DNA from: a candidate division CPR3 bacterium 4484_211 | GTDB taxonomy: Bacteria > Patescibacteriota > 4484-211 | NCBI GenBank assembly: GCA_002084955.1 | Contig: MZGJ01000001.1 | Coordinates: forward strand, 1-49,231 | Direction: 5' to 3' | Length of the DNA stretch: 49,231 nt | Made by a program: the position numbers and the translations under genes | The notes under the pieces: generated by a model | Databases searched by the model: none | Told to the model about the DNA's origin: nothing | Seen by the model: the letters and a program-made list of their open reading frames with translations, nothing else | Part shown: positions 11,666-43,491 of the stretch, piece by piece | How positions within the stretch are numbered: the stretch's first letter is position 1 | Layout: each line of letters starts with the position of its first letter

Positions 11666-12802
11666 CTACACTCCCAGAAACGTTGAGAAGTTCTTTGTGG
11701 TAATTGTTTGCACTTGAGCCGCAGGATAAGCTTTGGTAAACTCTTCTGCTACTACTCTACGCATTTCTCCCTGCCATTTAAATTCAAAACCATAAAGATT
11801 ACCCCCCCGCTCTTCGATTAAATCAATCTCTTTTTGATCATAGGTACGCCAAAAATAATAATTTGCTCTCCGGCCTAAATTTTCGTTAAACTTCATTCGC
11901 TCTATGTACAAGAAATTTTCCCATAACTGTCCCTTGTCATTTCGAAGATTTAGACCATTAAAATTTTCAATCAGTGCATTTCTTACACCGTTGTCGTAAA
12001 AATAATAGCGGCTTGTCTTAGCAATCTCCTTCCTTAAATTCCGGCTAAACCCGCCAACTCTGTAAATAACAAAAGACTTTTCCAGTAGATCAAGATATTT
12101 ATCCACTGTTGCTCGGTCCATAGAAAGATTACTGGCTAACTCGGAGATGGCCACCTCATTGCCAATCTGGAAGGCCAATAAACGTAGCAAATCAACTACT
12201 TTATCCGCTTTTTTAATTCCGCCAAAATCAAGTATGTCCTTGTACAAATAACTGGAAACTAATTCCGCCAGATAATTTTCTCTTTGTCTCCGACTTTCTA
12301 TAGTTAACGCCTCAGGATAGGATCCAAAAACCAACCAACGCTCCAGTTGTTCACGGGCTTCAAATTTTCCCAACCAATCTGTTAGCTCCTGATAGGATAC
12401 CGGGTAAAGCATAAAAGTTTTCTTCCTACCAGTCAGCGGTTCGCTAATTTTCCCGGCTAAATCAAAAGAGGCTGACCCGGTAACCAAAACTTTAACCCCA
12501 GGGATGTTATCGACCACAATTTTTAAATTCAATCCAATATTGGGAACCCGCTGAGCCTCATCAATGATCAAAATTTTCTTGCTACCAATAAGTTCCTTTA
12601 GTTTTCGTTCATCCTGGCTGGACAGAACCTCGCGATATCTTAGTTGATCACCGCTAATTTGCAGATTGGATTCTTCTAATTCTTCGGCTAATTGAGACAG
12701 CAAGGTTGTCTTACCCACCTGCCGCGGGCCATAAAGAATAGTTACCTTTCCCGGCTGAAGCGCTTCTTTAACTGCCTTGGTAATAATCCTAGGAATTAAC
12801 AT
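11666..12802 (-). CDS. AAA+ ATPase with a DUF4143-type C-terminal domain
   Basis: It has Walker A GPRQVGKTT, Walker B ILIIDEAQ, and a C-terminal FWRTYDQKEIDLIEE...FEFKW segment typical of the AAA_14/DUF4143 family. Confidence 0.8.
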   Translation of the reverse strand: MLIPRIITKAVKEALQPGKVTILYGPRQVGKTTLLSQLAEELEESNLQISGDQLRYREVLSSQDERKLKELIGSKKILIIDEAQRVPNIGLNLKIVVDNIPGVKVLVTGSASFDLAGKISEPLTGRKKTFMLYPVSYQELTDWLGKFEAREQLERWLVFGSYPEALTIESRRQRENYLAELVSSYLYKDILDFGGIKKADKVVDLLRLLAFQIGNEVAISELASNLSMDRATVDKYLDLLEKSFVIYRVGGFSRNLRKEIAKTSRYYFYDNGVRNALIENFNGLNLRNDKGQLWENFLYIERMKFNENLGRRANYYFWRTYDQKEIDLIEERGGNLYGFEFKWQGEMRRVVAEEFTKAYPAAQVQTITTKNFSTFLGV

Positions 12803-13126
12803 AAATTAGTTATATTATAATCCAATTAATTTGTCAAACTATAGGTGAACGGTGGAAGGGCACAAAGCATGCAAAGAAGTTAACCAAGAAATTTTACCGA
12901 GGGCTCTTAAAATTGCTTATTCCTGTAATTCAAGGCTGGGATTACTCAGAATTTTCACTTGCTTCTCTTTTGGAATTTTAGTCTCAAATAGTTTGACTAT
13001 ATTTCCAACAGTAACTTCTTCTTTTTTGTTGCCGTTTTCTGCAAAGCCTCTTTTCAAATCTCAAAACGGCTCCTTAGTTAAGTGCACAAAATGTATTCTA
13101 CTATCTATGTCTGGCTTTAGTAACTG

Positions 13127-13170
13127 TTGACTTAATTCTCGCCTTCACTTATCATTATAATAGATGTGAA
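13127..13170 (+). promoter_or_regulatory. Candidate promoter and operator for the XRE/methyltransferase operon
   Basis: TTGACT-17 nt-TATCAT, immediately followed by TATAAT. A short inverted repeat, TTCAC (13144..13148) / GTGAA (13166..13170), brackets the -10 region. Confidence 0.4.
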
Positions 13171-13206
13171 AGAAAGAAAACAATATATTCTATACATTTT
13201 AATATT

Positions 13207-13434
13207 ATGGGATCTATGTCAAGCACTAATTCTAAATCAAACATCGCTAAGAACATAAGGAGATTAAGACAGGCAAAAAAGCTCTCTCAAGATAGATTAT
13301 CAAAGCTCGCCGATTTGTCGCTAAATTCAATCGTTAATATAGAGTCAGGCAACAACCCCAATCCTACAATTGGAACATTAGAAAAAATAGCCAAGGCGTT
13401 AGGTGTTTCAGTTGAAGAACTATTAAAGAAATAA
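13207..13434 (+). CDS. XRE-family helix-turn-helix regulator (possible R-M controller, C-protein-like)
   Basis: 75 aa. IRRLRQAKKLSQDRLSKLADLSLNSIVNIESG is a classic HTH_3 signature. Its size and position directly upstream of a methyltransferase/specificity operon resemble controller proteins. Confidence 0.8.
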   Translation: MGSMSSTNSKSNIAKNIRRLRQAKKLSQDRLSKLADLSLNSIVNIESGNNPNPTIGTLEKIAKALGVSVEELLKK

Positions 13435-13435
13435 T

Positions 13436-13768
13436 ATGTCTGATAATCTGAAGAAAACAATTAAAGAATTACCAGAAGACGAGCGACCGCGAGAGAAACT
13501 ATTAAAATTTGGCGCAGACAAACTTAGCGATTCAGAGCTTCTTGCAATACTTTTGAGAACTGGCACAAAAGGAAAGTCAGCTATTGAAATGGCGGAAGAA
13601 ATTATCAAAAGCGCTGGAGGAAGTTTTAAGGGATTGGCTGGTAAAGATATAGAAGAACTTACTAAAATCCCTGGTGTTAAAAACGCTAAAGTTATAACAG
13701 TTGCCGCTACCTTGGAAATTGCTCGTCGAATTTCCAAGCAAATATTGAAAGATAGAGGAATTATTTAA
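13436..13768 (+). CDS. RadC-like protein, N-terminal helix-hairpin-helix part only (no JAB/MPN domain)
   Basis: ERPREKLLKFGADKLSDSELLAILLRTGTKGKSAIEMAEEII...LTKIPGVKNAKVITVAATLEIARR matches the RadC/UPF0758 N-terminal region. The ORF stops at 110 aa, before the metalloprotease-like domain would begin. Confidence 0.7.
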   Translation: MSDNLKKTIKELPEDERPREKLLKFGADKLSDSELLAILLRTGTKGKSAIEMAEEIIKSAGGSFKGLAGKDIEELTKIPGVKNAKVITVAATLEIARRISKQILKDRGII

Positions 13769-13769
13769 T

Positions 13770-15779
13770 ATGCCGAAATTACCAGATCCATTTTCCATAA
13801 AACCGACGAAGGAGCAAGTAAAGATAACACGCGAAATCATAGACGCGATTTTTAAGGACCCCCAAGTTAAGTATGGTTTGCGGGAGTTTTCTAAATTAAA
13901 GATTGAAGAAGTTTTACAGGTTTTTGAAAAGGAGAAAGGCAAATTTTATACTCGTTGCTTTAAGCGTGACAAAGATATTTTAGTTTATAACAAAAACAAA
14001 AATACTAGTAAACCGGAAGAGATTATCCGTCAGCTATGGCTTATTCGTTTAATAAAGGATTATCGCTATCCTTTGGAAAGAATAGAACTAGAAAAAGATA
14101 TACGTTTTGGCCGAGAAGTGCACGCAAAAGCGGCTGATATCGTCATTTATCAGAAAGACAAAGTTACTCCTTATATTATTATTGAAGTAAAAAGCCCCAC
14201 TGAGGAGAAAGGAATTGATCAATTAAAAACTTATCTTAATGCCGAAGGCTCACCTATCGGTGTATGGTCAAACGGCAAAGAGCGTGTCATTTTATATCGT
14301 CCCTATCCAAAGCAGTTTGAGGATACACTTACTGAAATTCCAAGAGTAGATCAAACTGTCAATGATGTTTTAGAGGAAAGAAAGACGCTAAAACAACTTA
14401 CTTCTGATTATAACCTAATAGAACGAATTAAAATTTTAGAGGAACTTGTTCTTGCCAATGCTGGGGTTGACGTTTTTCAAGAAATTTTCAAGTTAATTTA
14501 CGCAAAACTTTATGATGAAAAGGAAGCAAAATCTCGGCTGGATCAAGAAGTATATTTCCGAAAATCAAAAGACCCTAAATTTACTTTTGATATTATTAAC
14601 CGTCTTTTCAAAGAATCAGTTGAAGAGTGGCCTGGTATCTTTAATCGCTATGACGAAATTTTGCTTTCCCCCGATCACTTGTCGGTTTGTGTGGGACAAC
14701 TACAAGATATAAAACTTCTTGACTCTAATCTAGAAGTGGTCGATGCCGCTTTTGAATATCTTTTGCCAGAGGTATCAAAAGGCAAAAAAGGTCAGTACTT
14801 CACACCTCGCCATGTGATTGACATGGCAGTAAAAATGTTAAACCCGCGTGATAAAGAATATATTATTGATCCTGCATCTGGTTCCGGCGGCTTTTTGATT
14901 CACGCTATGCAGTGGGTTTGGAGCTATGACTTAAAAGATGCGCTACACGAAAAACAGGTTGAGTACGCTCGCCGTTATCTTTACGGTATTGATTTTGACG
15001 ACAAGCCAGTAAAAATTTCGCGGGCATTAATGCTTATTGCCGGAGACGGCCGTTCGCATATTTTTAAACTCAATTCTCTTAATCCTAAAGAATGGCTGGG
15101 GTCTAATTCAGAAAAAGAAAAGGCTCGTGCCGAGCTACGCGAACGACTTCTTAAAACCGGCGATTATGAAAGAGATAGAGAAAACGAAGAAACCTTCCGC
15201 AACTTTGCTTTTGATGTTTTGTTAACTAATCCACCGTTTGCCGGGAAGATAAAGGAACAATTATTACTCCGAGAATATGAGTTAGTAAAAAATAAAAAAG
15301 GTAAGATTCCCAAGCAAGTTGGACGCGATCTTTTATTTATTGAACGGGCGTTGCAATTTATAAAACCGGGTGGAAGATTAGCAATAGTTCTTCCACAAGG
15401 AAAGTTGAATAATACTAATACAGAACATATTCGCCAATGGCTTTTTGATAAAGCGAGAATTCTGGCAGTGGTTGGGCTTCATGGAAATACATTTAAGCCC
15501 CACACCGGAACAAAAACATCAATTTTGTTCTTACAAAAATGGAATGACAATCCAAAACTTGGTCCATTAAACCCTTATCAAGAAGATTATCCGATTTTTA
15601 TGGCAGTTTCCAAAAAACCGGGCAAGGATAATTCCGGGGAATATGTTTATAAAAAAGACGAGAAAGGAAATTATATTTTGGATGAAAAAGGTCGGCGCAT
15701 TTTAGATCACGACCTCGATGAAATTGCCGAAGCATTTGTAAAATTCGCCAAAGAGCAAAAATTTAATTTTTGGGAATAA
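13770..15779 (+). CDS. N6-adenine DNA methyltransferase (HsdM-like, gamma class) fused to an N-terminal HSDR_N / PD-(D/E)xK-like domain
   Basis: The N-terminus has AADIVIYQKDKVTPYIIIEVKSP (D...E-V-K nuclease-fold motif of the HSDR_N family). AdoMet motif I is FTPRHVIDMAVKMLNP...IIDPASGSGGFL. The catalytic motif IV is LTNPPFAG. Confidence 0.85.
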   Translation: MPKLPDPFSIKPTKEQVKITREIIDAIFKDPQVKYGLREFSKLKIEEVLQVFEKEKGKFYTRCFKRDKDILVYNKNKNTSKPEEIIRQLWLIRLIKDYRYPLERIELEKDIRFGREVHAKAADIVIYQKDKVTPYIIIEVKSPTEEKGIDQLKTYLNAEGSPIGVWSNGKERVILYRPYPKQFEDTLTEIPRVDQTVNDVLEERKTLKQLTSDYNLIERIKILEELVLANAGVDVFQEIFKLIYAKLYDEKEAKSRLDQEVYFRKSKDPKFTFDIINRLFKESVEEWPGIFNRYDEILLSPDHLSVCVGQLQDIKLLDSNLEVVDAAFEYLLPEVSKGKKGQYFTPRHVIDMAVKMLNPRDKEYIIDPASGSGGFLIHAMQWVWSYDLKDALHEKQVEYARRYLYGIDFDDKPVKISRALMLIAGDGRSHIFKLNSLNPKEWLGSNSEKEKARAELRERLLKTGDYERDRENEETFRNFAFDVLLTNPPFAGKIKEQLLLREYELVKNKKGKIPKQVGRDLLFIERALQFIKPGGRLAIVLPQGKLNNTNTEHIRQWLFDKARILAVVGLHGNTFKPHTGTKTSILFLQKWNDNPKLGPLNPYQEDYPIFMAVSKKPGKDNSGEYVYKKDEKGNYILDEKGRRILDHDLDEIAEAFVKFAKEQKFNFWE

Positions 15780-15783
15780 AAAT

Positions 15784-17238
15784 ATGACAGATCAAGAAAT
15801 TCTACAAATATTTTTAGACACCCAGGAATGGCAGAGATTTGAATGTAAAAGAGCTGCCATTCAGCCATCAAAATTATTAGAAACGGTTGTTGCTTTTGCA
15901 AATACTGACGGTGGTTTTATAGTTATAGGATTGGAAGACCCATCTAAAGCGCGAGAAGAAGAGAGATTGATCGGAATTAGTGAAAATCCTAACAATGTTT
16001 CTGAGTTTTTAAAGCTCATTGAGAAAGAAATTGATCCTCCTTTAAAATCCTGGAGTAAATTTGAACTTGATATTTGCAATATTCATAAAGCTAAAGATGT
16101 TTTATTAGTAATTAATATAAGAAAAAGCAATGATGTTCATTCGTTAAAGAAAGGGGACACTTATGTCAGAAAAGGAAATCAAAACGTTAAGATTACTGCA
16201 AATGAGATTATTCGACTAAAATATGAAAAAGGATCTATAAAATTTGAGAGTGAGTTGTCTAAAATACAAACTCTTGATGAGATAGATAGAGATCTTTTTG
16301 GTGCTTACAAAAGCGATACGCAAAGTGAGGGAGAAGATGATTGGCAGTTTCTGAAAGACAACGGGTTAGCTATAAAACAAGACAATATTTTTGTACTTAC
16401 CAAAGCTGGGGTTTTGCTTTTTCATAAAAATCCTTCTGTTGCTCTTGGGAGCAAATGTGGCGTTAAAATATCTCACTATTACGGGACGAAACCTACTTAT
16501 TCCGAGAAACCTAATTTTGTTCGGCGGCCCTTTACCATAGAAGGCCCGCTTTTGCATCAGATAGAAAAGACAATTAAATATTTCCGGGATATTGTAAAAA
16601 ATTCTCCGCCAAAATTAAGCGGAGCTGCCTTTAGTCCTTCTGTACTTATTCCTGAATGGGCCTTCCAGGAGGCTATAACAAATGCTGTTATACATAGAAA
16701 TTATTTTATACAAGATGATATTCAAGTTAGATTTTTTGATGATCGAATAGAAATTGAGAGCCCAGGCACTTATCCTGGTCATATCACCGTTAGTAACATC
16801 CGTTCAGAAAGATTCGCAAGAAATCCTCTCATTTTAAGAACTCTTAATCGTTTTCAAACAGCGCCTAATTTAGACATTGGGGAAGGAGTAGATCGTATGT
16901 TTAAGATTATGAGAGAACGTAATTTGTATGAACCGCTATATTTTCCTCCGTCAATTAGACCCAATTCCGTTCTGCTAATTCTTTTTAATCTCCAAAGGAT
17001 AGAGTATTGGGATACTGTAAGCAAATATTTAGATAAGCATTATCGTATTACTAATAGTGAGGCCCGCAGAATTACAGGTATTAAAGATACTTTAAAAATG
17101 TCCCGTCTTCTAAAATCTTGGGTTGATAAAGGACTATTACAAAAGGTTGGCGAAAAAGCAAAAAAGGTGGTTTATTATATAAAACCAGGACAAGAAATGC
17201 CTAGTCGTTTATTTTCAAAGGGGGTTGAAAATAAATAA
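15784..17238 (+). CDS. AlbA_2 (Schlafen-like divergent AAA) plus HATPase_c_4 domain protein
   Basis: The N-terminus FECKRAA...VVAFANTDGGFIVIG is the AlbA_2 signature. The central EAITNAVIHRNY...RIEIESPG is the HATPase_c_4 signature. The C-terminus is winged-helix-like. The gene is inserted between the methylase and S genes. Confidence 0.7.
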   Translation: MTDQEILQIFLDTQEWQRFECKRAAIQPSKLLETVVAFANTDGGFIVIGLEDPSKAREEERLIGISENPNNVSEFLKLIEKEIDPPLKSWSKFELDICNIHKAKDVLLVINIRKSNDVHSLKKGDTYVRKGNQNVKITANEIIRLKYEKGSIKFESELSKIQTLDEIDRDLFGAYKSDTQSEGEDDWQFLKDNGLAIKQDNIFVLTKAGVLLFHKNPSVALGSKCGVKISHYYGTKPTYSEKPNFVRRPFTIEGPLLHQIEKTIKYFRDIVKNSPPKLSGAAFSPSVLIPEWAFQEAITNAVIHRNYFIQDDIQVRFFDDRIEIESPGTYPGHITVSNIRSERFARNPLILRTLNRFQTAPNLDIGEGVDRMFKIMRERNLYEPLYFPPSIRPNSVLLILFNLQRIEYWDTVSKYLDKHYRITNSEARRITGIKDTLKMSRLLKSWVDKGLLQKVGEKAKKVVYYIKPGQEMPSRLFSKGVENK

Positions 17239-17294
17239 AAAGTTGTCGAATTTACGTTTAAAATCAAGCATTTTTTCAATTTTCATTTTCATCT

Positions 17295-18656
17295 ATGGTT
17301 ACTTACTCCATTATTCAAAAATCACAACTTGAAGGCGGCCTGCGGCTGGATGCGGAATATTATCAGCCGGAGTATTTGAATAATGCAAAAATTATTGCAA
17401 CGTTACCATATGACGTGAAAAAGTTTGCCGACCTCGCTTCTTATATTACCAATGGTCATACGCCGTTGCATGCGGATTTATCTATCGGAGATGTTTATTT
17501 TCTAACCGCTGAAAATGTTTTTGATTTTTTTATAGATTATGGAACGGCAAAAAGAATTACTAAATTGGCGAGTAAAACAGAATTAAAAAGAACGATTTTA
17601 TCAGATAATGATTTATTGATAACAATAAAGGGGCGAGTTGGGAATGCCGCTATCGTTTATAAACTACAACAGGATACAAATATAAATCAGGATGTAGCAA
17701 GAGTTGTAGTAAAAAAGGGAATAAGCCCATTCTATCTATCTGCATTTTTGAATTCTAAATTTGGGAAATTACAAGTAGAAAGAATTGCGACTAATCAAAT
17801 CAATCCTTTCTTGGGTCTCGGTAATCTAAAAGAACTACTTGTTCCTATTATTGAAATAGACAAACAAGAAGAAATTGAGAAATTAATTAAAAAAGGATTG
17901 GATGAATTGGAAAATTCAATCTCTCTCTACTCTCAGGCCGAAAATTTGCTTTTGGAAGAGTTGGGATTAAAAGATTTTCAGGTTGAAGATGACCTATCTT
18001 ATATCGTCAATCTTTCCGAAATAAAATCTGCTCATCGCGCCGACGCCGAATATTTTCAGCCGAAATATGAAAAATTAATTGAAAAAATTAAGAAATACGG
18101 CTCGGTTCCCTTGTTAGATTTGGTCCAAAATGTGCCGGCGAGATTTAATCCGAAATCCCAGCCAACAAAACTTTTTCGATATATAGAACTTTCAAACATT
18201 ACTTCTTCTGTTGGGACAATAGATGGATTTTCAGAAGTATCAGGAGATGAAGCGCCAAGCAGAGCAAAAAGAGTGTTGAAAGCTAACGATGTTATTTTTT
18301 CCAGCGTTGAGGGTTCATTAGGAAAAGTGGCTCTAGCTGGAAAAGAACAGGAAGAATATCTGGCATCAAATGGTTTTTTTCAATTCAGAAGCAAAAACAT
18401 TCTGCCGGAAGTTTTGTTGGTTTTAGCAAAGAGTTTTGTTTTGCAAATGCAGTTTGAAAAAGAAACAACAGGTACTATTCTTACGGCAGTACCAAAAGAA
18501 GCTGTAAAAAATATTATTGTTCCAAAAATAGAGAAAACTATCCAGCAAAAAATCGCCGAATTAGTTCGAAAATCCCACGAAGCCCGCTTAAAAGCAAAAC
18601 AGCTTTTAAAAGAAGCAAAAAATAAGGTCGAAAATTTAATTGAAACAAAGTTATAA
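17295..18656 (+). CDS. hsdS: Restriction-modification specificity subunit (HsdS-type, two target-recognition domains)
   Basis: There is an internal duplication: RLDAEYYQPEY near the N-terminus and HRADAEYFQPKY mid-protein. Two coiled conserved spacers are present (EIEKLIKKGLDELE, IQQKIAELVRKSHEARLKAKQLL). Confidence 0.85.
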   Translation: MVTYSIIQKSQLEGGLRLDAEYYQPEYLNNAKIIATLPYDVKKFADLASYITNGHTPLHADLSIGDVYFLTAENVFDFFIDYGTAKRITKLASKTELKRTILSDNDLLITIKGRVGNAAIVYKLQQDTNINQDVARVVVKKGISPFYLSAFLNSKFGKLQVERIATNQINPFLGLGNLKELLVPIIEIDKQEEIEKLIKKGLDELENSISLYSQAENLLLEELGLKDFQVEDDLSYIVNLSEIKSAHRADAEYFQPKYEKLIEKIKKYGSVPLLDLVQNVPARFNPKSQPTKLFRYIELSNITSSVGTIDGFSEVSGDEAPSRAKRVLKANDVIFSSVEGSLGKVALAGKEQEEYLASNGFFQFRSKNILPEVLLVLAKSFVLQMQFEKETTGTILTAVPKEAVKNIIVPKIEKTIQQKIAELVRKSHEARLKAKQLLKEAKNKVENLIETKL

Positions 18657-18661
18657 ATACT

Positions 18662-18883
18662 ATGGCAAAAGTAGGCAGAAGGCGCAAAAGAAAAACTTCA
18701 ACAAGACAACGTTTTCTAAAAAAGAAAGGGTTAAAAAAGGTACCGAGAGGAAAAGAAATTGATCATAAAGTACCTTTATCCGAAGGAGGAAGCGATAGTT
18801 TGAGAAATTTAAGGTTGATTAAAAAGAAGACGCACAAGCAAAAGACAAAACGAGAAGCTCGCAGGCGCGCTAGAAGAAGATAA
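18662..18883 (+). CDS. Mini HNH endonuclease-like protein with highly basic tails
   Basis: 73 aa. EIDHKVPLSEGGSDSLRNLRLIKKKTHKQK fits the D-H...N...H HNH core. Both termini are Arg/Lys-rich. Confidence 0.65.
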   Translation: MAKVGRRRKRKTSTRQRFLKKKGLKKVPRGKEIDHKVPLSEGGSDSLRNLRLIKKKTHKQKTKREARRRARRR

Positions 18884-34895: not shown

Positions 34896-34924
34896 TTGAC
34901 CCAACCTACTCCTTTATATATACT
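34896..34924 (+). promoter_or_regulatory. Candidate promoter of the plus-strand secretion-like cluster (near-leaderless)
   Basis: TTGACC-17 nt-TATACT. The -10 ends 10 nt before the ATG at 34935. Confidence 0.55.
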
Positions 34925-34934
34925 TGAGAGCAAG

Positions 34935-37900
34935 ATGAAGAAACTGTCCCGGCCGGCTGCCATCATCGCCTCTCTAACCCTTGTCATCCTCTTCGCCGGT
35001 TCCCTGCCGACCGCCGGCACTTGGGCTTTTCAGTCTCCGCCGCCAAACAGCATGTTCGGCGGTCTGCCGGACTCCGCCCGCGGGTTCTTTGAAGGAGTAG
35101 GTCAGCTTTTTAACCGTTGGTTCTTCGGCGGCCCGGCGCCTCAAGAAGGGGGATCAGAGCCCTACCATCCTCCCGCCCCCACCTCTTCACCTACCCTGCC
35201 CGCAGGAATTACTCCCACCCCCACTCCGGCTTACTCCGGAGAAGGCGATCTCATCAAAATGCAGGCCAAGGTGGTGAACTTCAGCTGTATTGCCGACAAC
35301 CCACCGGATGAACTTTATGATGCCACCTGCGGAGATGAAGTTGATGATTTGCAGCAAGACTGCGGCAATTTCTTTATAAGTGACCAAAACCGGCAGTCTC
35401 CACTAGCCGAGCAAGACCAATCTAACGAACCCGCCGGGCCTATCAGCAGCCTGCTTGGCGTAAGTCAAGTCCGGGCGCAAGCCCAGCCAACTCTCCCCCC
35501 TTTGCCAACAGTACCTGTCCCTCCGCCATTTACCACCAACGCCTGTTTGGCCAACCCCAATGAATTTAATACCGACTATGATCCTCTTACCATTACGGAA
35601 AACGACTGCAGTCCCTACCTGGAACCCGCCCCTCTCGACTACAACCCCTTTGACCGATGGGACGCCTGTTTCGTCGATAATCCAAACCAAATCTGCGCCT
35701 ACAAAGTCCGGTCACAAAACATCGTTGAGCAAGATGACACCTGCAACGAATACACCCCGTCTGAACACGGAGAACGGCTGAACCGCGACGAAGAGCTTAA
35801 TCGCGATTATCCCGCCGGAGCCGTCTGCACCACCAATGATACAGGCGGCCCCTATTATGTCAGAAAATTAAACAGCGGCGAATGCAGTGGGATGTGTTCA
35901 ACATGCGGCGATCAGAAAAGCGACGCCGGCCGGTGTGTAGACGGCACCTTTGATGCCTGCCGCAAGGCCATTGAGGTAGAAACTTACGAGTATCGTTTTC
36001 GCACCTCGGCGCGGCCGGACGGCGCTCCTCAGGCCGGAGAGGCCTGCTCTCCCCAAGACCGGTGTGATCCAACCAACCTTAATTGCTATTTGGGCGACGA
36101 CAATCCAGAACTAGGCTTAGCCTGCGGCGCCGAACCAACACCCTGCCCGCTCACGCCCACTCCCCTGCCTCATGACCCGCCCGAAATAGAATCAGCCGCC
36201 TGTTTGCAGCGAACTTACAGAGGCAAGGAAATCTCCTGCAGCAACGGCTGCAACTGCGGAGGAGAACCCGAACACTGTCCAAAAAAGCCCGCCCAGTGCG
36301 GCGACACGGCAAATTGCTGTGACTGCGACTTAACAGACCCAGACAATCCCATCTGCCACGCAGTATGGACAAACCCGCCAGGTCCTATATGTGGGGGCGG
36401 TCCCTGCTGCAAGATGTGCGTTACTATACCTCCCGACAGTTGTTACGATGTCAGCACCAATCTGGAGCAGTTTTTCTCCGACAACCCCTATACTGGCTGC
36501 AGTAATAATCCCTACTCCAATGTCTGTGGAAGCGACGGCAGCTGCACCGACGGCAACAGCTGCGCCTCGGTAAATGACTGCTGCGGCACGCAGAATCTTT
36601 TGGGTGCAGACACCCGCACCACCGCTTCCGCTGAAGACTGCTCCTATTACGAGTGGACTGTACGGAGAAGCGCCTATAAAGTTATTTATCGCAGCAATCA
36701 AATTAATTTAAAACTCCAAATTAAAAATTTAACCGATCACGATATTCCTCTCAACGATCCCTCCAATAACTACAAGTGTCCCGATGGAGATATCTCATGT
36801 GAAACTGACCCCAATTCACCCGCTTGGTTTACCGCCGCACGGTCAGGTGATGACCACGACTTTTTACTTGAGTTTGAGATACCAGATTTTTTAGACATCT
36901 TGAGTATCTATCCCACTTGGGATAACTGTGAATTTACCTCCATTGACGGGGACGGGAATCCTACCACCCTAGATCCGGAAGACGCCAAGGACAAAAGTTA
37001 CCGCCTGGTTTTTCCTGAAACCATGACCGGGGAAAATTGGCGAGGGCTAATTAATCCCAGCTTTGCATGCACCGGCGGCAAGGGCGGGCTTATCGCTCTG
37101 CAAAAACCAGAGATTGGAGAGTTGGAAGGCATCTGGGGAGGCGGGATTTCTGCAGAGTACGCCGACAACCTTCAAGCCTATTGTTACAATCACTACGGCT
37201 ATCAGGTCCCGGGCGGAGTGCCTCAAAACGGGTCTCCAAACTGCAATGTATACCAAATCTACCAACAGGAAGGTCTAGAATCCGCTACCCCCGCCTACAA
37301 GGGCTGTCAGGCAGAAACCTACCTAGGCGACCCATCCGTGGTTGCTCCAAATGTGCAGTTTTTATCGTACTATGACGAAAATTGCAATTTGGTACCCACC
37401 AATATTATCAAGCCCTACGCCTGTCACGGAGGAAGAGTGCGCTTAGTTATGGACTATATACCAAAAGGCTGTGAATTAACCCTATGGATTTCTTTTGTTC
37501 CATCCGATATTGATCCCACTGGTCGTTCCTGGTACCGCAACCACTACATCCCCAAAGAGTGGCTTGACCACTACATTCACAATTTAATTAGTGACGATCG
37601 GCTGGTAAACCTAGAATATAAAGCCATGTGGCCCGTAGGAGGCGCCCGTGCCTTTTACTGGGACTCCACCGCCGACTTTAGTATAGAGCCGGTTTCTTCG
37701 GTTACCGAATTGCAGGCTTTCTGGATTGGCAAGGGAATCCACGCCACCAATGCCCTAGACCCTCAGCCCGGTTGTGGAAGCAGCTGCTTTGCCGACCCCG
37801 ATGCTATGCCTTTCGGCTGGCCCAGTTTTGGCAGAATTGATCAGGATTGGGGAGGAATGAGTGATGCCAACACCGACCCCACAGATCCCAGAACATTCAC

Positions 37901-38510
37901 CAATCCGTTCGCCGCCATTTTTGGGCCCAATACCCAAGGCGGCGGTGAATATCTTAGCGGCTGCGGAGATCCCGACGGCGAGGGCGGCTGGCGCCATGTA
38001 GGGATTACACTTGTGCCGCGCGAAGGCGAAATCTCCCCTCCCAAAGTTCACGCCACACACGCAGGCTATGTAACCAGGGTTGTAAAAGATCCCAGCCTAG
38101 ACGCACAATATCCAGCCCGCGGAGCCTATGTAGAAATACAGTCTACCGTAGACTACGATTGTGCTTCCAATTTTGTTACCCGCTATTTAGGACTGGACCC
38201 CGACTCTATTCGAGTTGAGGAAGGAGAATATGTCCCCCGCCACAAAATACTAGGCCTCATGGGAGACAGCGGCTACATTCCCACACAGGGATTTGGCGCC
38301 CCCGGTCTCACTCGGCATTATAATTCCGGTTTTCTCCACACCACCTATGTCATCCGCTACAGCGGCGACAATCTTGCCAATCCGGGAACAGACGGCTGTG
38401 ACGGCAATCCCTACATCTCCGAAGAGGGAATGCCTTTCTTCTTCTGTGAAAACCGCCGACGAGGGGATACGGTAGAACGTTGTTATTATGCCAATTATGC
38501 CAATCCGTAA
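34935..38510 (+). CDS. Giant Cys-rich secreted protein with a C-terminal LytM/M23-like domain (metal ligands partly substituted)
   Basis: It has a signal-like N-terminus (MKKLSRPAAIIASLTLVILFAGSLPTAGTWA) and Pro/Thr linkers. Cys clusters are dense (e.g. CSNGCNCGGEPEHCPKKPAQCGDTANCCDCDL...CGGGPCCKMC). The C-terminus WRHVGITL...VHATHAGYVTRV...GAYVEIQS...ILGLMGDSGY...FLHTTY follows M23 motif spacing. Confidence 0.7.
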   Translation: MKKLSRPAAIIASLTLVILFAGSLPTAGTWAFQSPPPNSMFGGLPDSARGFFEGVGQLFNRWFFGGPAPQEGGSEPYHPPAPTSSPTLPAGITPTPTPAYSGEGDLIKMQAKVVNFSCIADNPPDELYDATCGDEVDDLQQDCGNFFISDQNRQSPLAEQDQSNEPAGPISSLLGVSQVRAQAQPTLPPLPTVPVPPPFTTNACLANPNEFNTDYDPLTITENDCSPYLEPAPLDYNPFDRWDACFVDNPNQICAYKVRSQNIVEQDDTCNEYTPSEHGERLNRDEELNRDYPAGAVCTTNDTGGPYYVRKLNSGECSGMCSTCGDQKSDAGRCVDGTFDACRKAIEVETYEYRFRTSARPDGAPQAGEACSPQDRCDPTNLNCYLGDDNPELGLACGAEPTPCPLTPTPLPHDPPEIESAACLQRTYRGKEISCSNGCNCGGEPEHCPKKPAQCGDTANCCDCDLTDPDNPICHAVWTNPPGPICGGGPCCKMCVTIPPDSCYDVSTNLEQFFSDNPYTGCSNNPYSNVCGSDGSCTDGNSCASVNDCCGTQNLLGADTRTTASAEDCSYYEWTVRRSAYKVIYRSNQINLKLQIKNLTDHDIPLNDPSNNYKCPDGDISCETDPNSPAWFTAARSGDDHDFLLEFEIPDFLDILSIYPTWDNCEFTSIDGDGNPTTLDPEDAKDKSYRLVFPETMTGENWRGLINPSFACTGGKGGLIALQKPEIGELEGIWGGGISAEYADNLQAYCYNHYGYQVPGGVPQNGSPNCNVYQIYQQEGLESATPAYKGCQAETYLGDPSVVAPNVQFLSYYDENCNLVPTNIIKPYACHGGRVRLVMDYIPKGCELTLWISFVPSDIDPTGRSWYRNHYIPKEWLDHYIHNLISDDRLVNLEYKAMWPVGGARAFYWDSTADFSIEPVSSVTELQAFWIGKGIHATNALDPQPGCGSSCFADPDAMPFGWPSFGRIDQDWGGMSDANTDPTDPRTFTNPFAAIFGPNTQGGGEYLSGCGDPDGEGGWRHVGITLVPREGEISPPKVHATHAGYVTRVVKDPSLDAQYPARGAYVEIQSTVDYDCASNFVTRYLGLDPDSIRVEEGEYVPRHKILGLMGDSGYIPTQGFGAPGLTRHYNSGFLHTTYVIRYSGDNLANPGTDGCDGNPYISEEGMPFFFCENRRRGDTVERCYYANYANP

Positions 38511-38540
38511 AAGCAGGCATGTCATGTAGTGAGCAGTCAA

Positions 38541-38624
38541 TCTGACTTCCGAATTCTGAATTCTGACTTCTGGATTCTGAATTCTGGATTCTGGATTCTG
38601 AATTCTGGATTCTGAATTCTAATA
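38541..38624. repeat. 12 x 7-nt tandem repeat (TCTGRAT), ending 2 nt before a start codon
   Basis: Units in order: tctgact tccgaat tctgaat tctgact tctggat tctgaat tctggat tctggat tctgaat tctggat tctgaat tctaata, then tc-ATG (38627). Confidence 0.95.
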
Positions 38625-38626
38625 TC

Positions 38627-39607
38627 ATGCCCCATATTCGCCTAAACAGAAAAGCTAAAATCTTTGCAGGACTGGCGGGAATAATTGTGCTTGCCCTCGG
38701 AACTTATCTTTACACCCGTCAGTTCACACCCCCAAAAAAGGAGACTATTGACCCCTTTTCCGACCTTTCTCCTGTACATGTATCCATCCCCCAAGATATT
38801 TGGCGTTTCTCCTTTTCACTTGGAAGACTGCCGTCAAAGCTGAAAATTTATCAAGTGGGATTTCAAAGCCTCCCCTCGCCCGCCTACACCTTTTTGGTTA
38901 ACCTGGCCAAGGACCTTAATTTCCCCAACGAAGTTCAGCCCACCGGCTCGGGCGATATTCTCAAAATTTACTACCAGCAGCGGTCTTTGTCGGTTAACTA
39001 CAAAAACGGCACCGTAAAATATTCATCTCATCCCCAGTCTCAAACAGGACTTCTAGCCCTGCCCGCAAGCGGCGCCACATCAGCAGAAAACGCCTACACC
39101 TTTTTAAAAAATCAACATCTCATCGGCAACTCATTTTCTTACCAGAACAGCTTTATTGAAGAGATAAATCTGAACGCAAGCATTGGAATAACCAGTACGC
39201 AGAAAAGCCTTGCCGGCAGAACGATTACTTTTTTTGCCAAACTGGACGGTATCCCCGTTTACGGCAATTACCTCAACCCCTATGTCATGCTGAATGCGGA
39301 AAACAAAATCTTTGCCTTTTCCTCCTCGCTTGCCGAATTTTCTCCGTCTCCCGATTACGCGGCTGTTACCATAAAAAGCCAAAAGGAAGTACAGAAGGAT
39401 CTGCAAAACGGCGAAGGCAAAACTTTTGTCTCCTGCCCCCAACTGCCGCAGGCTGAAAGTGTTACCGTAACCAAAGGCGAATTAATTTATTATCAAAATC
39501 CTAAGGCCAATATTATCTCCCCTATCTTTAAACTCACGGTTAGAGCTAAAAAAGGAGATCAGGAATGCAATGCTATAATTTACCTAGATGCGGGGAGAAA
39601 AAGATAG
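38627..39607 (+). CDS. N-terminally anchored extracytoplasmic protein, partner A (paralog of 41635..42885)
   Basis: It has a TM segment (IFAGLAGIIVLALGTYLY). Blocks shared with the 416-aa protein are LAKDLNFP/LQKLNLPS, RSLSVNYKNGTVKY/RSLKVDQNYQTLEY, AYTFLKNQHL/AWNFLADNNF, KSQKEVQKDLQNGEG/LKKEKAVQEELLDQKG and KGELIYY/EGSIAYF. Confidence 0.6.
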   Translation: MPHIRLNRKAKIFAGLAGIIVLALGTYLYTRQFTPPKKETIDPFSDLSPVHVSIPQDIWRFSFSLGRLPSKLKIYQVGFQSLPSPAYTFLVNLAKDLNFPNEVQPTGSGDILKIYYQQRSLSVNYKNGTVKYSSHPQSQTGLLALPASGATSAENAYTFLKNQHLIGNSFSYQNSFIEEINLNASIGITSTQKSLAGRTITFFAKLDGIPVYGNYLNPYVMLNAENKIFAFSSSLAEFSPSPDYAAVTIKSQKEVQKDLQNGEGKTFVSCPQLPQAESVTVTKGELIYYQNPKANIISPIFKLTVRAKKGDQECNAIIYLDAGRKR

Positions 39608-39734
39608 CAGGAGCCAGGAACTAGGAATTTTGGGGTTTAAGCACCAAGCCGCCAGAGGCGGATTAGAATGCGAAACAGGAACCCCCCGTCCAAGGGACCA
39701 GAAGGCAGAAATCAGTATCCAGGAGAATAAAGAG

Positions 39735-41609
39735 ATGAAAGCAAGACTTATCTTGAGAATACTTTTAATCTTAATATTAGCCATCTCTGTGACAACCTCT
39801 TCAGTTGCCACTCTTACCAACAAGCCGGTGGGGGCACAGGAAGTGGACTGCATCGCCACACACCTTGCCAAGTATACCGCCGCGATTCTAAGCGGACTAG
39901 ACATCAATGACAACACAACCCCCTGCTCCGGCAATGTCTGCTTCCTAACCCCGGCTTTTAACATGAGCCGCCCCGAATTTGAAAATTTTGCCGATCTTTA
40001 CTTTGAAGCCCTTAACAGCGAAGGATACGGGATAGGCAACTTCCACGCCGTCGCCGGCGACGCCTACAACACTTCGTGGGGTACAATCAGCTACTTCGTA
40101 AGTATTGCCCGCGGAACTTCAATTGGGAACAAAGATATGATCCTAACGGAAATCGGCTGGTATCCCCACAACATTGACGAAAGTGAGCGCCCATTCGCCG
40201 TCAATAGCCTAGCCGAGGAAATCCGAAGATTTCCTGATCTCGGAGTCATCGGCGGACTTATCTTTGACCAGTATGGTTACAACCGCGACTATCGCGCGCA
40301 ATCACTGTCAGAAGAAGAGCTGATTGAGGTAAGAAGGATCGCCGGAGATTCTCCCTCCGCCTCCCTTCGCGACCTAAATGTCGGCGCTAACTCCGCGGTA
40401 ACCTATTTCCGCTATCCCGACTTTTATACCTATGCCGCAGGAGATGTAATGAAATACACCCTGGAGGTGGCCCACACGGGGGATGTAGCAACATCCGTTC
40501 TGAGCGGCATCCAGGCCGCCCATGGGGCTGAAATTACCCCAATAGTCCGCTTTGGCGTTGGCATGAACAGCACCGGCGCCTACCCGCCCGAAAATGTTGT
40601 TGAGTTCATTGAAAAGCTGAATGGCGCAGGAATAAATCGATTAGTTTTGGTTATGCTTGGGCCAAACGAGCCCCTCGGAGAATGCTGGGCCACCACCCCA
40701 ATGTGCCGATGCGATACCTACGCCACAGGCCACCAGGGCGGCTCTCTCTGCAAAGCCCATTCCTCCCCTTCGCAGGGGGGATTTCCCCCAGATACAGTCT
40801 TTAATGTTACCGACCCTGACTGCCCCGGACAAACAGCAATGATACGCCTCCCCTTTGAGGTTGTCCCCCCCGCCGGAACCAATCCGCCCGAGGGCTGCTC
40901 GGATTTTGATGGATACCCCAGCCTAGAAGGGCTTGCCAGCGGCGTCAACCGTTGGATAGCAGCTTACCGCGCTGCCGCAGATGAAGCGGCGGAACAAACA
41001 GGCGAATTTCCCTGGCAGGTCCTTGCCGCAATTCACTATATGGAAAGCGGTTTCAGAGGCATGGAAGAAACCGACTACAATCCCTTTCAGATTGCCATTT
41101 CCTGCGCTACTCCAGACGCCTGCACCCCCGAGCTGTGCAGTCCAGCGGGAGTCCCCTATCGCCCCTGCCCCGATAGCAACCCAACGATGTTCGAGGCGGC
41201 ATTGGGCGCGGCGCACTTTCTTATTTACCAAAAGAGATACGGCGGGTCGCGCGCCCCAACTGCTGTCCAGAACGCCTTTTTCGCATACAACGGCGCCTAC
41301 CCTCGGTGCAATTCTAGAGAATACGGCGAATGTGGATATAACTACATTTACGGTGAAGCCAGCCGTTCACCTTATGTCATGAACTATTACAATCATTGTT
41401 TCTGCGATATGCCAATTAACTGGTCACCAACCCACCACAACCAGACCGAGTGCAACGGACTTGGCTTGGGTTCTTTAAGCGTGTGGCCAGACGAACCCTA
41501 TGACCCCAGTGCGGGATGGGTAGAAATTTTTCAGAACAAAGGAGCCTACACCATTTATGCTTATTTAATCGCTGGCTCTATCGGATTGGACGGATCGTGG
41601 CATCTATAG
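39735..41609 (+). CDS. Cys-containing secreted protein with a C-terminal SLT-like (lytic transglycosylase, VirB1-like) region
   Basis: The start follows AGGAGA (39721..39726). It has a signal-like MKARLILRILLILILAISV. The N-terminal half has a glycoside-hydrolase-like MILTEIGWYPHN. The C-terminal WQVLAAIHYMESGF...FFAYNGAY (41007..41300) resembles the SLT catalytic E-S and AYNxG motifs. Confidence 0.65.
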   Translation: MKARLILRILLILILAISVTTSSVATLTNKPVGAQEVDCIATHLAKYTAAILSGLDINDNTTPCSGNVCFLTPAFNMSRPEFENFADLYFEALNSEGYGIGNFHAVAGDAYNTSWGTISYFVSIARGTSIGNKDMILTEIGWYPHNIDESERPFAVNSLAEEIRRFPDLGVIGGLIFDQYGYNRDYRAQSLSEEELIEVRRIAGDSPSASLRDLNVGANSAVTYFRYPDFYTYAAGDVMKYTLEVAHTGDVATSVLSGIQAAHGAEITPIVRFGVGMNSTGAYPPENVVEFIEKLNGAGINRLVLVMLGPNEPLGECWATTPMCRCDTYATGHQGGSLCKAHSSPSQGGFPPDTVFNVTDPDCPGQTAMIRLPFEVVPPAGTNPPEGCSDFDGYPSLEGLASGVNRWIAAYRAAADEAAEQTGEFPWQVLAAIHYMESGFRGMEETDYNPFQIAISCATPDACTPELCSPAGVPYRPCPDSNPTMFEAALGAAHFLIYQKRYGGSRAPTAVQNAFFAYNGAYPRCNSREYGECGYNYIYGEASRSPYVMNYYNHCFCDMPINWSPTHHNQTECNGLGLGSLSVWPDEPYDPSAGWVEIFQNKGAYTIYAYLIAGSIGLDGSWHL

Positions 41610-41634
41610 ATCCGGCCTAAAAGAACAAAAGAAA

Positions 41635-42885
41635 ATGCCCAAAAAATTGTTCGCCTTACTCAAGAAAAAAACTCTCCGGTCCTTAAGACTTCGGAGAAAA
41701 ACAACCTTCCTCGTTCTCCTTCTCCTCGCTATAACCGCCATAATAGTGGTTCTCTTAAAAAATCGCCCCACCGTAGAAGTTGAACTTCCCCTTTCTGTTC
41801 CCGCCACCACCTGCACCCCCAAAGACGCCCCGACGCCGCAGAATATACCCGAAATTAAAATACCTAACCGGCTAAGTTTCTACACGGCCAGCCCCAGTAT
41901 TTCCTCTATCAAGGACCTAAACCCTATTTTACAAAAACTAAATCTGCCGTCTTCGCCTTTGCGCACACCTCAAGGCGAATACCATTGGTATCTCTGGAAA
42001 AACAAAACTCGGTCACTCAAAGTGGACCAAAATTATCAGACACTAGAGTATTTTCCTCTTGAGACACAAGATTCGGATCAGGAAAATGCCGCCTCGTTCT
42101 CTAAAGAAACCGAGGTTTTAACCTACGCCTGGAATTTCCTAGCGGATAACAACTTTTTAAAATTTTCACCAATCGAAGAAACAACCGGGAAAATTCTGCT
42201 ACTCCAAAAGGAAGACGTGCATTACAGTCATACTAACAGCTTCACAAAAGCTAATACATTTTTAGTCAGCTTCTCGGTAAATCTAAATGGGCACCCAATC
42301 CTCTCTAATTTTACCCAACAAGGAATTACTTCTGTCCTCATTGACAAAACAGGCAAAGTTCTAAATGCCAAGGCCCTGCTTATCAAACTGACAAAAAACA
42401 GCACGGTAAAACTAAAAAAAGAAAAAGCCGTGCAGGAAGAACTACTTGACCAAAAGGGTCTTATATTAACCAATTATCTAATAAACCGCAGCCGAGATTG
42501 CCCCACCAAAGTTATCCTTAACGAAGGAAGCATCGCCTACTTTATAAACCACAAAGTATCCAACCAGGCAGTCCCTGTGGCAATTTTCTCAGGAAGTGCC
42601 GTTGTCAGGAACCAGCCGATCCCGGCTAAAATTCTGCTTGACCTTCAAGACAGAACTGTCCCCGTAGAAGAGGAACAAAAACGATACCTTCGTTCTTTTC
42701 TGCTTAGCTACCCCTCCCTGGGTTCCTTCGCCATTAACTACAACGAAGAAAGTAAAACCTTCGTTGTCCTCCCAATAAATTGGAGAAAGGACCTTGAAGA
42801 GATAAGGATTGAAGCCATGCAATGGTTTAAGGACAATGATCTTGATCCCTTTCTTCTGGGCATCTCCTGGCAACACTTCCCCTAG
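41635..42885 (+). CDS. N-terminally anchored extracytoplasmic protein, partner B (paralog of 38627..39607)
   Basis: It has a TM segment (TFLVLLLLAITAIIVVLL). The shared blocks are listed under 38627..39607. Confidence 0.6.
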   Translation: MPKKLFALLKKKTLRSLRLRRKTTFLVLLLLAITAIIVVLLKNRPTVEVELPLSVPATTCTPKDAPTPQNIPEIKIPNRLSFYTASPSISSIKDLNPILQKLNLPSSPLRTPQGEYHWYLWKNKTRSLKVDQNYQTLEYFPLETQDSDQENAASFSKETEVLTYAWNFLADNNFLKFSPIEETTGKILLLQKEDVHYSHTNSFTKANTFLVSFSVNLNGHPILSNFTQQGITSVLIDKTGKVLNAKALLIKLTKNSTVKLKKEKAVQEELLDQKGLILTNYLINRSRDCPTKVILNEGSIAYFINHKVSNQAVPVAIFSGSAVVRNQPIPAKILLDLQDRTVPVEEEQKRYLRSFLLSYPSLGSFAINYNEESKTFVVLPINWRKDLEEIRIEAMQWFKDNDLDPFLLGISWQHFP

Positions 42886-42908: not shown

Positions 42909-42936
42909 TTGACTCCCCTCTTGAGATTGCTATAAT
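42909..42936 (+). promoter_or_regulatory. Candidate internal promoter (near-leaderless) for the PrgI-like to VirB4 genes
   Basis: TTGACT-16 nt-TATAAT-gaatac-ATG (42943). Confidence 0.5.
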
Positions 42937-42942
42937 GAATAC

Positions 42943-43491
42943 ATGAAAACACACCGCATTCCCAGACATGTCACCGGATATCAAGGAAGAATTATCGGCC
43001 GGCTTAGCCCCAAGCAGTTCATCTACCTAGCCATCGGTGGAATTAGCATCTTTTTCGTCTTCACCGTCGTTCCCCTTTCCTTTGCCACCATCATCATCGT
43101 CAGTCTCATTGGCCTTTTTACCTTCACCTTTGCCCTAGCCTCTATTGAGGAACGCTCCCTAGATGAATGGGCTCTTAATTTCCTGCTCGCCCTGCAATCA
43201 ACCCCGCAATACATCTGGCGGAAAGAGGAAAAAATCCCCGAAATACTAGACCCAACCTACCAGCCGCACATTCCCCATCCCGGCAAGGAAAAGCTTCCCG
43301 CCTCGCAACAGAAGCTCAACAATTTCCTGGAATTTTGGCGCTCCGGAAAAGGAAATGGCTTTACCAGACGGGAAGAAGAATTCCTACAGAACTTAAAAAA
43401 TATCCAAGCTGGGGAATCGGCGGCTTCCTCACCAACCAAACTTAGTAGACCGGTAGTAGAAGCGCACACCGAACCCTTAGATACAAGATGA
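42943..43491 (+). CDS. PrgI-family / VirB3-like small membrane protein
   Basis: IPRHVTGYQGRIIGRLSPKQFIYLAIGGISIFFVF is followed by a second TM segment and ERSLDEWALNFL. This matches the PrgI pattern of Gram-positive T4SS loci, and the position upstream of VirB4 is typical. Confidence 0.6.
   Translation: MKTHRIPRHVTGYQGRIIGRLSPKQFIYLAIGGISIFFVFTVVPLSFATIIIVSLIGLFTFTFALASIEERSLDEWALNFLLALQSTPQYIWRKEEKIPEILDPTYQPHIPHPGKEKLPASQQKLNNFLEFWRSGKGNGFTRREEEFLQNLKNIQAGESAASSPTKLSRPVVEAHTEPLDTR

Follow-up and report, generated by a model that had tools for sequence, protein, structure and literature searches.

In the sporulation 'feeding tube', a secretion-like apparatus between two cells, the degenerate, non-catalytic M23/LytM domain of SpoIIQ docks to the membrane-anchored extracytoplasmic partner SpoIIIAH. 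The M23/LytM domain of PrgK is degenerate as well, and this protein is self-regulated. The type IV secretion systems (T4SS) of Patescibacteria are widespread, chromosomally encoded and essential for the epibiotic lifestyle of Saccharibacteria, while their envelope-spanning parts have largely escaped identification. According to a survey from 2025, they are almost devoid of VirB8, contain little VirB6 in Microgenomatia and have VirB1 rarely linked to VirB4 (PMC12102498). In Bacillota, YycH and YycI (WalH and WalI) serve the cell-wall two-component system WalRK, which controls autolysins, as extracytoplasmic accessory proteins with an N-terminal anchor (PMC7355866). For Bacillus subtilis, YycH's and YycI's extracellular domains have been reported to take no part in WalK signalling (cited in PMC7355866). 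Here, we describe a T4SS locus of the candidate division CPR3 bacterium 4484_211. All coordinates refer to the + strand of a 49,231-nt stretch of contig MZGJ01000001.1, hereafter called the window. It encodes two copies, P1 and P2, of a membrane-anchored protein (the partner) and two large proteins, H1 and H2, whose genes lie upstream of P1 and P2, respectively. The partner belongs to a conserved, unannotated family with a confident predicted fold, a constant companion of the large M23-bearing protein at related loci.

P1 (38627..39607, 326 aa) and P2 (41635..42885, 416 aa) have the coordinates and lengths given in the original prediction, and each partner gene is preceded, in the same orientation, by the gene of a large protein with an N-terminal anchor. 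Both partners possess, as had also been recognized, a single N-terminal transmembrane (TM) anchor, namely a basic N-terminus followed by a helix at residues 12-30 in P1 and 23-41 in P2. The predicted topology is N-in and comprises a short cytoplasmic N-terminus, one TM helix and approximately 260-300 extracytoplasmic residues. A direct BLASTP comparison of P1 and P2 gave a borderline result (24.6 bits, E value 0.004, 21% identity). Therefore, their relationship was examined with homologs independent of the window. A hidden Markov model (HMM) made from 19 homologs of other genomes, with the window sequences excluded, matched P2 with 113 bits (E 1.9e-33, positions 10-339 of 345) and P1, the more divergent of the two copies, with 57 bits (E 2.3e-16, positions 9-340). 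Alignment of the P1 orthogroup with the P2 orthogroup by hhalign was significant, too (probability 96.5%, E 7.5e-10, 240 columns), and all five collinear blocks from which the relationship had originally been deduced share columns in a 22-member family alignment. Judged by these profile comparisons, P1 and P2 are true, anciently diverged paralogs. Orthologs of P1 were found in L002 (2657-3670, E 3e-11), L082 (3482-4522, E 1e-11) and P0016 (E 7e-21), orthologs of P2 are P0008 (E 8e-46) and P0038.

To define the family, 80 loci around VirB4 relatives were retrieved from GTDB genomes (the 80 listed out of 254 VirB4 relatives). The named records among these 80 belong mostly to Patescibacteria/Microgenomates lineages, e.g. 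Curtissbacteria, Shapirobacteria and WWE3. Labels of the L001-L080 type denote such VirB4-anchored loci, those from L082 onward include loci that were reached via the partner itself. An iterative search of the 80 loci yielded about 20 full-length partner homologs of 300-365 aa. When 1.84 billion representatives were searched exhaustively with HMMER, 67 clusters (50% identity) emerged at E <= 1e-3, nearly all of which were 300-350 aa long and matched over their full length. Public records label the members as 'hypothetical protein [Patescibacteria group bacterium]'. Identity across the family is 17-20%, indicating fast evolution. With P1, P2 or the 22-member alignment as query, word-indexed searches for homologs gave essentially self matches only, and the sole contig found by a metagenome scan with the P2 orthogroup was L083. 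P1, P2 and the family profiles A1 and A3 had no meaningful match among PDB sequences, no family member reached any Pfam family, and NCBIfam and PHROGs were negative for P1 and P2, in agreement with the earlier statement that the partners belong to no recognizable family. On the basis of these searches, the family is specific to Patescibacteria and unannotated. Sub-threshold matches of P1 to DUF4330 and of a few members to DUF4901, FTP and YycI were rejected as they were not reproducible across the family. Short proteins of 129-145 aa with weak family matches were also set aside, because only the common TM and linker region is matched; they belong to a separate 'tail-domain' family described below.

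Outside the window, the partner was situated directly behind a large M23 protein in 29/29 evaluable loci. At 20/20 GTDB loci, a full-length partner gene lies directly 3' of an M23-bearing open reading frame (ORF) on the same strand, with gaps of -55 to +25 nt, and Pfam confirmed a C-terminal M23 domain in 8/8 upstream proteins checked. M23 was likewise encoded upstream in 9/9 evaluable cases reached via the partner (L082 twice, L086, L087, L093, L094 twice, L095 and L098). L099 is truncated, with a YkuD domain at its end like that of the L010 M23 protein. In the VirB4-anchored set, an M23-type large protein was followed by a partner in 20/21 cases. By contrast, within 10 kb on either side of VirB4, the partner was absent from 11/11 loci whose large protein carries a CHAP (8) or C39-like (3) domain; directly 3' of these large proteins, only small TM proteins with a tail domain of ~70 aa are encoded. 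This co-variation strongly supports the specific relationship between enzyme and partner suggested in the original prediction.

On a crude neighbour-joining tree of VirB4, loci of the M23 plus partner type and of the CHAP/C39 type interleave several times. A clean cassette swap is apparent from L071 and L060. Their VirB4 proteins are 86% identical and the large proteins 41% over residues 1-933 and 1-920, respectively, and the loci differ only in the C-terminal domain (M23 versus C39) and in the partner gene (present versus absent). Since M23 and the partner have repeatedly been exchanged together, the partner should work specifically with the M23 domain, which is our main argument, and the repeated co-swaps indicate a functional coupling of enzyme and partner. 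We give an about even chance to the reading that the partner is the cognate extracytoplasmic partner, be it a regulator, keeper, docking factor or inhibitor, of the T4SS-associated M23 domain.

The module occurs either after VirB4 or before PrgI. Most loci show the order PrgI - TrsD - VirB4 - M23 protein - partner. In the clade of the window (L002, L082-84, L086 and L094), the module is present twice and is located upstream of PrgI, with an M23 protein A followed by a partner of the P1 type and an M23 protein B followed by one of the P2 type. Thus, the layout of a large extracytoplasmic enzyme-like protein and an anchored partner is a real conserved module, which recurs in the same tandem arrangement in the orthologous loci L082-84 and L094. 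In L082 and L086, M23 is retained in the second large protein and P2 is kept. L002 contains an H2-type protein without M23 and lacks a P2 ortholog, its place being taken by a different TM protein of 367 aa, which is consistent with P2 being dispensable once M23 is gone. A gene of the 23S_rRNA_IVP family lies in or beside the T4SS locus in L082-L084 (2962-3327, between the H1 and P1 orthologs) and L093 (2550-2951).

To obtain information on the fold, P2 was modelled by AlphaFold (AF2). The mean predicted local distance difference test score (pLDDT) was 38.7 with an alignment of three sequences and 85 with 66 sequences, the latter model having a predicted TM-score (pTM) of 0.77. The 66-sequence model comprises the TM helix, a body made of three small alpha/beta domains (~residues 75-340) and, at the C-terminus, an alpha-beta-beta-alpha extension. 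In a Foldseek search of the PDB, the top ten matches were all B. subtilis YycI (2o3o) or YycH (9a5d_B), with a probability of 1.00 and E values of 5e-7 to 1e-5. After this group, the next match had a probability of 0.08 and every later one 0.38 or lower, and no VirB8 or NTF2 structure appeared among the 50 PDB matches listed. A search of a viral structure library gave nothing. As far as the model can tell, the extracytoplasmic body of P2 (41857..42654) has a YycH/YycI-like fold, YycI and YycH being its only structural relatives, and a body of this kind is also predicted for P1. A VirB8-like fold of the partner, which would have spoken for a T4SS component unrelated to the hydrolases, was not found.

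The two large proteins of the window deviate from their counterparts. H1 (34935..38510) is rich in cysteine and has one N-terminal TM/signal anchor, the remainder being predicted as extracytoplasmic. Its ORF has 1204 aa when read from a TTG at 34896. A promoter-like site at 34896..34924 (TTGACC-17-TATACT, 10/12, + strand, identified by a consensus scan only), just 5' of the ATG at 34935, suggests that this ATG is the start. Orthologs exist in L002 (2-2641, E 9.7e-65), L082 (bigA, E 3e-64) and L094 (upstream gene, E 1e-64). Residues 1034-1127 (37995..38276) form a degenerate M23/LytM-like domain. The match to Pfam PF01551 (E 0.0084 for the whole protein and 0.00097 for the C-terminal piece) reached only 16.7-19.7 bits compared to a gathering cut-off of 28.7, yet homology to M23 is supported by H1 orthologs, which matched a local M23 HMM with E values of 7e-11 and 2e-13. 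When aligned, H1 shows H...T in place of HxxxD, Gly instead of the middle His, HxT in place of HxH, and an insertion of 15 residues. Most M23 domains at the other loci keep the zinc and catalytic residues that H1 has lost. From this alignment, the H1 domain is probably non-catalytic and a binding module only.

H2 (39735..41609) has 624 aa when read from the probable ATG at 39735 behind a GGAG site, while the longest ORF starts at 39588. The protein has an N-terminal anchor, no M23 domain, and no match in Pfam, NCBIfam, PHROGs or PDB. It is a mosaic. In place of M23, it has an unrelated N-terminal domain (~residues 85-400 in 673-aa numbering, 39840..40787), which recurs in the L002 ortholog of H2 (E 2e-68) and at the N-terminus of a GH28-carrying protein of 2008 aa in L046 (10024-16047, E 3e-15). 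The C-terminal domain (residues 436-665, 40893..41582) is homologous to parts of the L086 upstream gene product (E 8e-28) and of L082 bigB (residues 793-1062, E 2e-18), in both of which it sits C-terminal to the M23 domain. By eye only, the motifs 'LTEIGW' and 'GPNEP' of the N-terminal domain recall, in reversed order, glycosidases of clan GH-A. ES, FQI and YNG motifs of the C-terminal domain resemble family-1 lytic transglycosylases and are kept in the L086 homolog. An hhalign comparison with five SLT domains, though, aligned only 17 columns around ES (P 0.044). These searches did not confirm an assignment of H2 as SLT or glycoside hydrolase. The original prediction had ascribed a muralytic C-terminus to both large proteins. 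For H1, the sub-threshold M23 match agrees with this, even though three catalytic/zinc residues are missing; for H2, short SLT-like motifs without a family match are all that remains. Hence, with a degenerate M23 in H1 and none in H2, the designation 'hydrolase' is unproven for both neighbors of the partners. Similarly, the proposed duplication of a two-gene module holds beyond doubt for the partner gene and the gene order, while no relationship between H1 and H2 could be detected.

If the partner is indeed dedicated to the M23 domain, it may dock to the large protein, perhaps via its TM helix, as YycH/YycI do to WalK, and with its ectodomain on M23. At the membrane's outer face, the docked partner would hold, position or inhibit the M23 domain, and cleavage of the wall would thereby be confined to the site or time of T4SS assembly or host contact. 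In the window, the first M23 has lost zinc/catalytic residues, the second enzyme gene has lost M23 while P2 was kept, and P2 has absorbed a small tail protein. We infer that the partner binds directly to M23 or the large protein and controls or positions wall cleavage. Several points weigh against this reading. The window itself breaks the rule, since P2 is encoded behind a protein without M23 and P1 behind one with a degenerate M23. The GTDB loci were chosen via VirB4, so that partners outside T4SS loci would be missed there, and the VirB4 tree carries no support values. The similarity of the P2 model to YycI is modest (TM-score ~0.5 normalised to YycI, root-mean-square deviation ~7 A), although multi-domain flexibility can account for moderate TM-scores. 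A link to the YycH/YycI Pfam families is lacking at the sequence level: 0/66 members matched YycH (PF07435) or YycI (PF09648) at E <= 0.01, one member matching YycI with E 0.032. Finally, co-variation of the C-terminal domain and the downstream gene is equally expected of an effector-immunity cassette.

The latter explanation takes the large proteins as polymorphic hydrolase effectors, delivered by the T4SS or displayed on the surface and directed against hosts or competitors, and the partner as an immunity protein shielding the producer's wall from M23. A swap of the C-terminal domain together with the downstream gene is a hallmark of polymorphic toxin cassettes, and the order of enzyme and partner genes with tight or overlapping junctions, the fast evolution of the partner and its extracytoplasmic position, where the wall lies, fit well. 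Moreover, H1 and H2 are predicted to have an N-terminal anchor only and could be released, and Saccharibacteria require their T4SS for epibiotic growth (PMC12102498). However, a signal peptide is missing from the large M23 proteins of most loci. Their hydrophilic N-terminal region of ~420-1040 aa is followed by 2-5 internal TM segments, behind which the hydrolase domain is situated. This architecture argues against exported toxins; the proteins look like resident membrane proteins with an outward enzyme domain. The partner, on the other hand, is a three-domain protein of 300-350 aa which occurs as a single copy at a fixed place of the T4SS operon, orphan arrays of immunity genes were not observed, and P1 and P2 are kept beside a degenerate M23 and a protein without M23, respectively. 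Given that the large proteins look resident, regulation in cis is more plausible than an exported toxin and its immunity protein, while the cassette behaviour fits both. We therefore regard immunity as an unlikely, though not negligible, explanation. The original comparison with effectors of antibacterial T4SS and T6SS (type VI secretion systems) does not suit the context, which is a chromosomal monoderm-type PrgI/TrsD/VirB4 T4SS and neither a T6SS nor an antibacterial T4SS of the Xanthomonas type.

A more daring version of the cognate-partner reading is tentative and has a small chance of being correct. The M23, CHAP and C39-like domains on the large T4SS-locus proteins of Microgenomatia-type Patescibacteria would be interchangeable 'warheads' that cleave peptidoglycan. 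Each would be swapped together with a dedicated keeper anchored in the membrane, the two forming a cassette, and the family with the YycH/YycI fold would be the M23-specific inhibitor or gate, which protects the wall of the epibiont and releases the enzyme only at the site of host contact. If true, this would show what the YycH/YycI ectodomain fold does biochemically, a long-standing question, i.e., that it binds wall hydrolases.

Another possibility is that the partner is a generic T4SS scaffold replacing VirB8 (PrgL/TraM/TcpC) in Microgenomatia-type systems and that its link to the hydrolase is positional only. In most loci, the order PrgI - TrsD - VirB4 - hydrolase - partner mirrors prgI - prgJ - prgK - prgL of pCF10, and the bitopic N-in topology is that of VirB8 proteins, as is the location in a T4SS operon. 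VirB8 homologues are almost undetectable in Patescibacteria, for which 'a completely different protein' has been considered (PMC12102498). VirB8 identity, which was first expected because of the prgK-prgL synteny, was nevertheless rejected by the fold search, the P2 fold not being NTF2-like, and by the absence of the partner from the CHAP/C39 loci. Alignment of the family profile A1 with pCF10 PrgL by hhalign gave a probability of 0.7%, and there was no VirB8-type match in Pfam or NCBIfam. Loss of the partner along with a swap of the hydrolase domain argues against a universal structural subunit. Because of the repeated joint exchange of M23 and partner, a generic VirB8 substitute is ranked low despite the synteny and is, in our opinion, rather improbable. 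Still far less credible is a signalling accessory that modulates a sensor kinase or another signalling protein via the TM helix, reports the wall status and regulates T4SS expression, for in spite of the YycI/YycH fold match and the identical topology, no histidine kinase or response regulator was detected between H1 and VirB4, among ten large ORFs scanned elsewhere in the window or in the gene calls for L082-L084, L086 and L093, and it is M23 rather than a signalling gene to which the partner is strictly linked.

In L010, L019, L025, L029, L040, L061, L071 and others, the large proteins contain a TM cluster in the middle, sometimes with Gly-zipper matches, and a swappable C-terminal M23, CHAP or C39 domain, to which YkuD is sometimes added. 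A VirB6- or VirB1-like component is 'missing' from the Microgenomatia T4SS, as noted in PMC12102498, and the large hydrolase-bearing proteins may fill this gap. The small TM-anchored tail proteins constitute a family of their own, whose domain of ~70 aa has a consensus of about LPY..F.I.Y....W....G.DP....I.W and belongs to no known family. They follow either the partner or, directly, the large proteins of the CHAP/C39 type, with two copies in C39 loci. Separate tail genes after the partner are present in L070 (6831-7202), L071 (16400-16771), L077 (16495-16857), L078 (16879-17226), L087 (4931-5272) and L097 (1002-1358). Since an HMM of the short tail proteins matched residues 364-413 of P2 (E 2.5e-4) and 349-404 of P0008 (E 5e-9), and since the tail is encoded by separate genes elsewhere, P2, like its orthologs, represents a fusion of partner and tail. 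The tail domain of P2 (42664..42882) coincides with the alpha-beta-beta-alpha extension of the model.

H1, P1, H2 and P2 are the first of eight co-directional genes on the + strand (34.9-47.7 kb). The gap between H1 and P1 is filled by a tandem repeat of 7 nt (TCTGAAT/TCTGGAT, 38541..38620, 11.4 copies, 84% matches), which ends 6 nt before the P1 ATG and could be a slipped-strand (phase-variable) element acting on P1 expression. Downstream of P2, the best promoter-like site of the region (42909..42936, TTGACT-16-TATAAT, 11/12, with TG, + strand, again from the consensus scan only) lies 5' of a gene for a PrgI/VirB3-like protein (42943..43491; PF12666, E 2.5e-6, 28.4 bits versus a cut-off of 27). 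It is followed by a coiled-coil protein with a C-terminal CarboxypepD_reg domain (43488..44774), which forms a single protein with PrgI at most of the related loci, and by a TrsD/TraC-like protein (44851..45543; NCBIfam TrsD, E 1.4e-9, under its cut-off), which resembles the N-terminal domain of VirB4. Orthologs of the latter match PF26593 (TraC-like), weakly in L082-84 and with no such mark in L086 and L093. The last gene encodes a VirB4-type ATPase (45601..47718; P-loop_TraG, E 3.6e-26, AAA_10 and CagE_TrbE_VirB). At 45601-45780, its ORF begins with a poly-Q run (CAA x6, 45637-45654) and a Pro/Ala-rich N-terminus of low complexity, ~110 residues in length, that is unmatched in the 80 listed relatives, whose tblastn alignments begin at query residues 56-137. 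Directly 3' of VirB4, a 355-aa protein with an HxHxQ-type motif is encoded (47760-48827; GalT/HIT-like by eye, no Pfam match), which is kept in the closest relatives of the window (L001 2323-3387, L082 14379-15479). The window is chromosomal, as PolA, FtsH and Lon genes are nearby, and in a non-exhaustive scan neither a relaxase nor a type IV coupling protein was detected between H1 and VirB4 or among ten other window ORFs. By its gene content, the locus is a chromosomal monoderm-type T4SS of Patescibacteria (MPF-FATA-like, with PrgI, TrsD-like protein and VirB4), in line with PMC12102498. Apart from this locus, the window contains an island of low guanine-cytosine content (~12000-18700, 0.34-0.37 compared to ~0.46 elsewhere), which is probably an acquired defence island. 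Its genes specify a restriction-modification enzyme of the type N6_Mtase+HSDR_N (13770-15779), a Schlafen protein with AlbA_2/HATPase_c_4 (15784-17238) and a protein of 453 aa.

Compared to known systems, the degenerate H1-P1 pair is paralleled by SpoIIQ and SpoIIIAH. SpoIIIAH differs in having a ring-building (EscJ-like) fold, and the two sporulation proteins are made in different cells. Polymorphic toxins (CdiA-CT/CdiI, Rhs, LXG, T6SS Tae/Tai and Xanthomonas X-Tfe/X-Tfi) share with the M23 loci a variable C-terminal enzyme domain that is swapped with the downstream gene, whereas the large M23 carriers look like resident, polytopic membrane proteins and the partner is a large multi-domain protein with one copy per module. 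The operon logic is the same as that of PrgK and PrgL of pCF10 (as well as TraG and TraM/TraH of pIP501), where the order is also PrgI, VirB4, multidomain hydrolase and bitopic partner. What separates PrgL from the partner is its NTF2-like fold, the absence of any profile similarity and the fact that the partner tracks the M23 domain and not the T4SS as a whole. The modules are concrete candidates for the means by which these ultra-small bacteria breach the wall of their own cell or of the host without self-lysis. YycH and YycI, the only significant structural matches, possess the same short cytoplasmic N-terminus, single TM helix and multi-domain extracytoplasmic body (PMC7355866), and they are tied to the control of peptidoglycan hydrolases, as the partner appears to be. 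The partner is not a member of these families by sequence, there is no WalK-like kinase near it, and its gene belongs to a T4SS operon, directly behind an M23 gene; a literature search found no paper linking YycH/YycI to T4SS. While YycH and YycI act on gene expression via a kinase, the partner would engage in a direct partnership with the enzyme domain at the protein level, which offers a hypothesis for the function of the YycH/YycI ectodomain fold.

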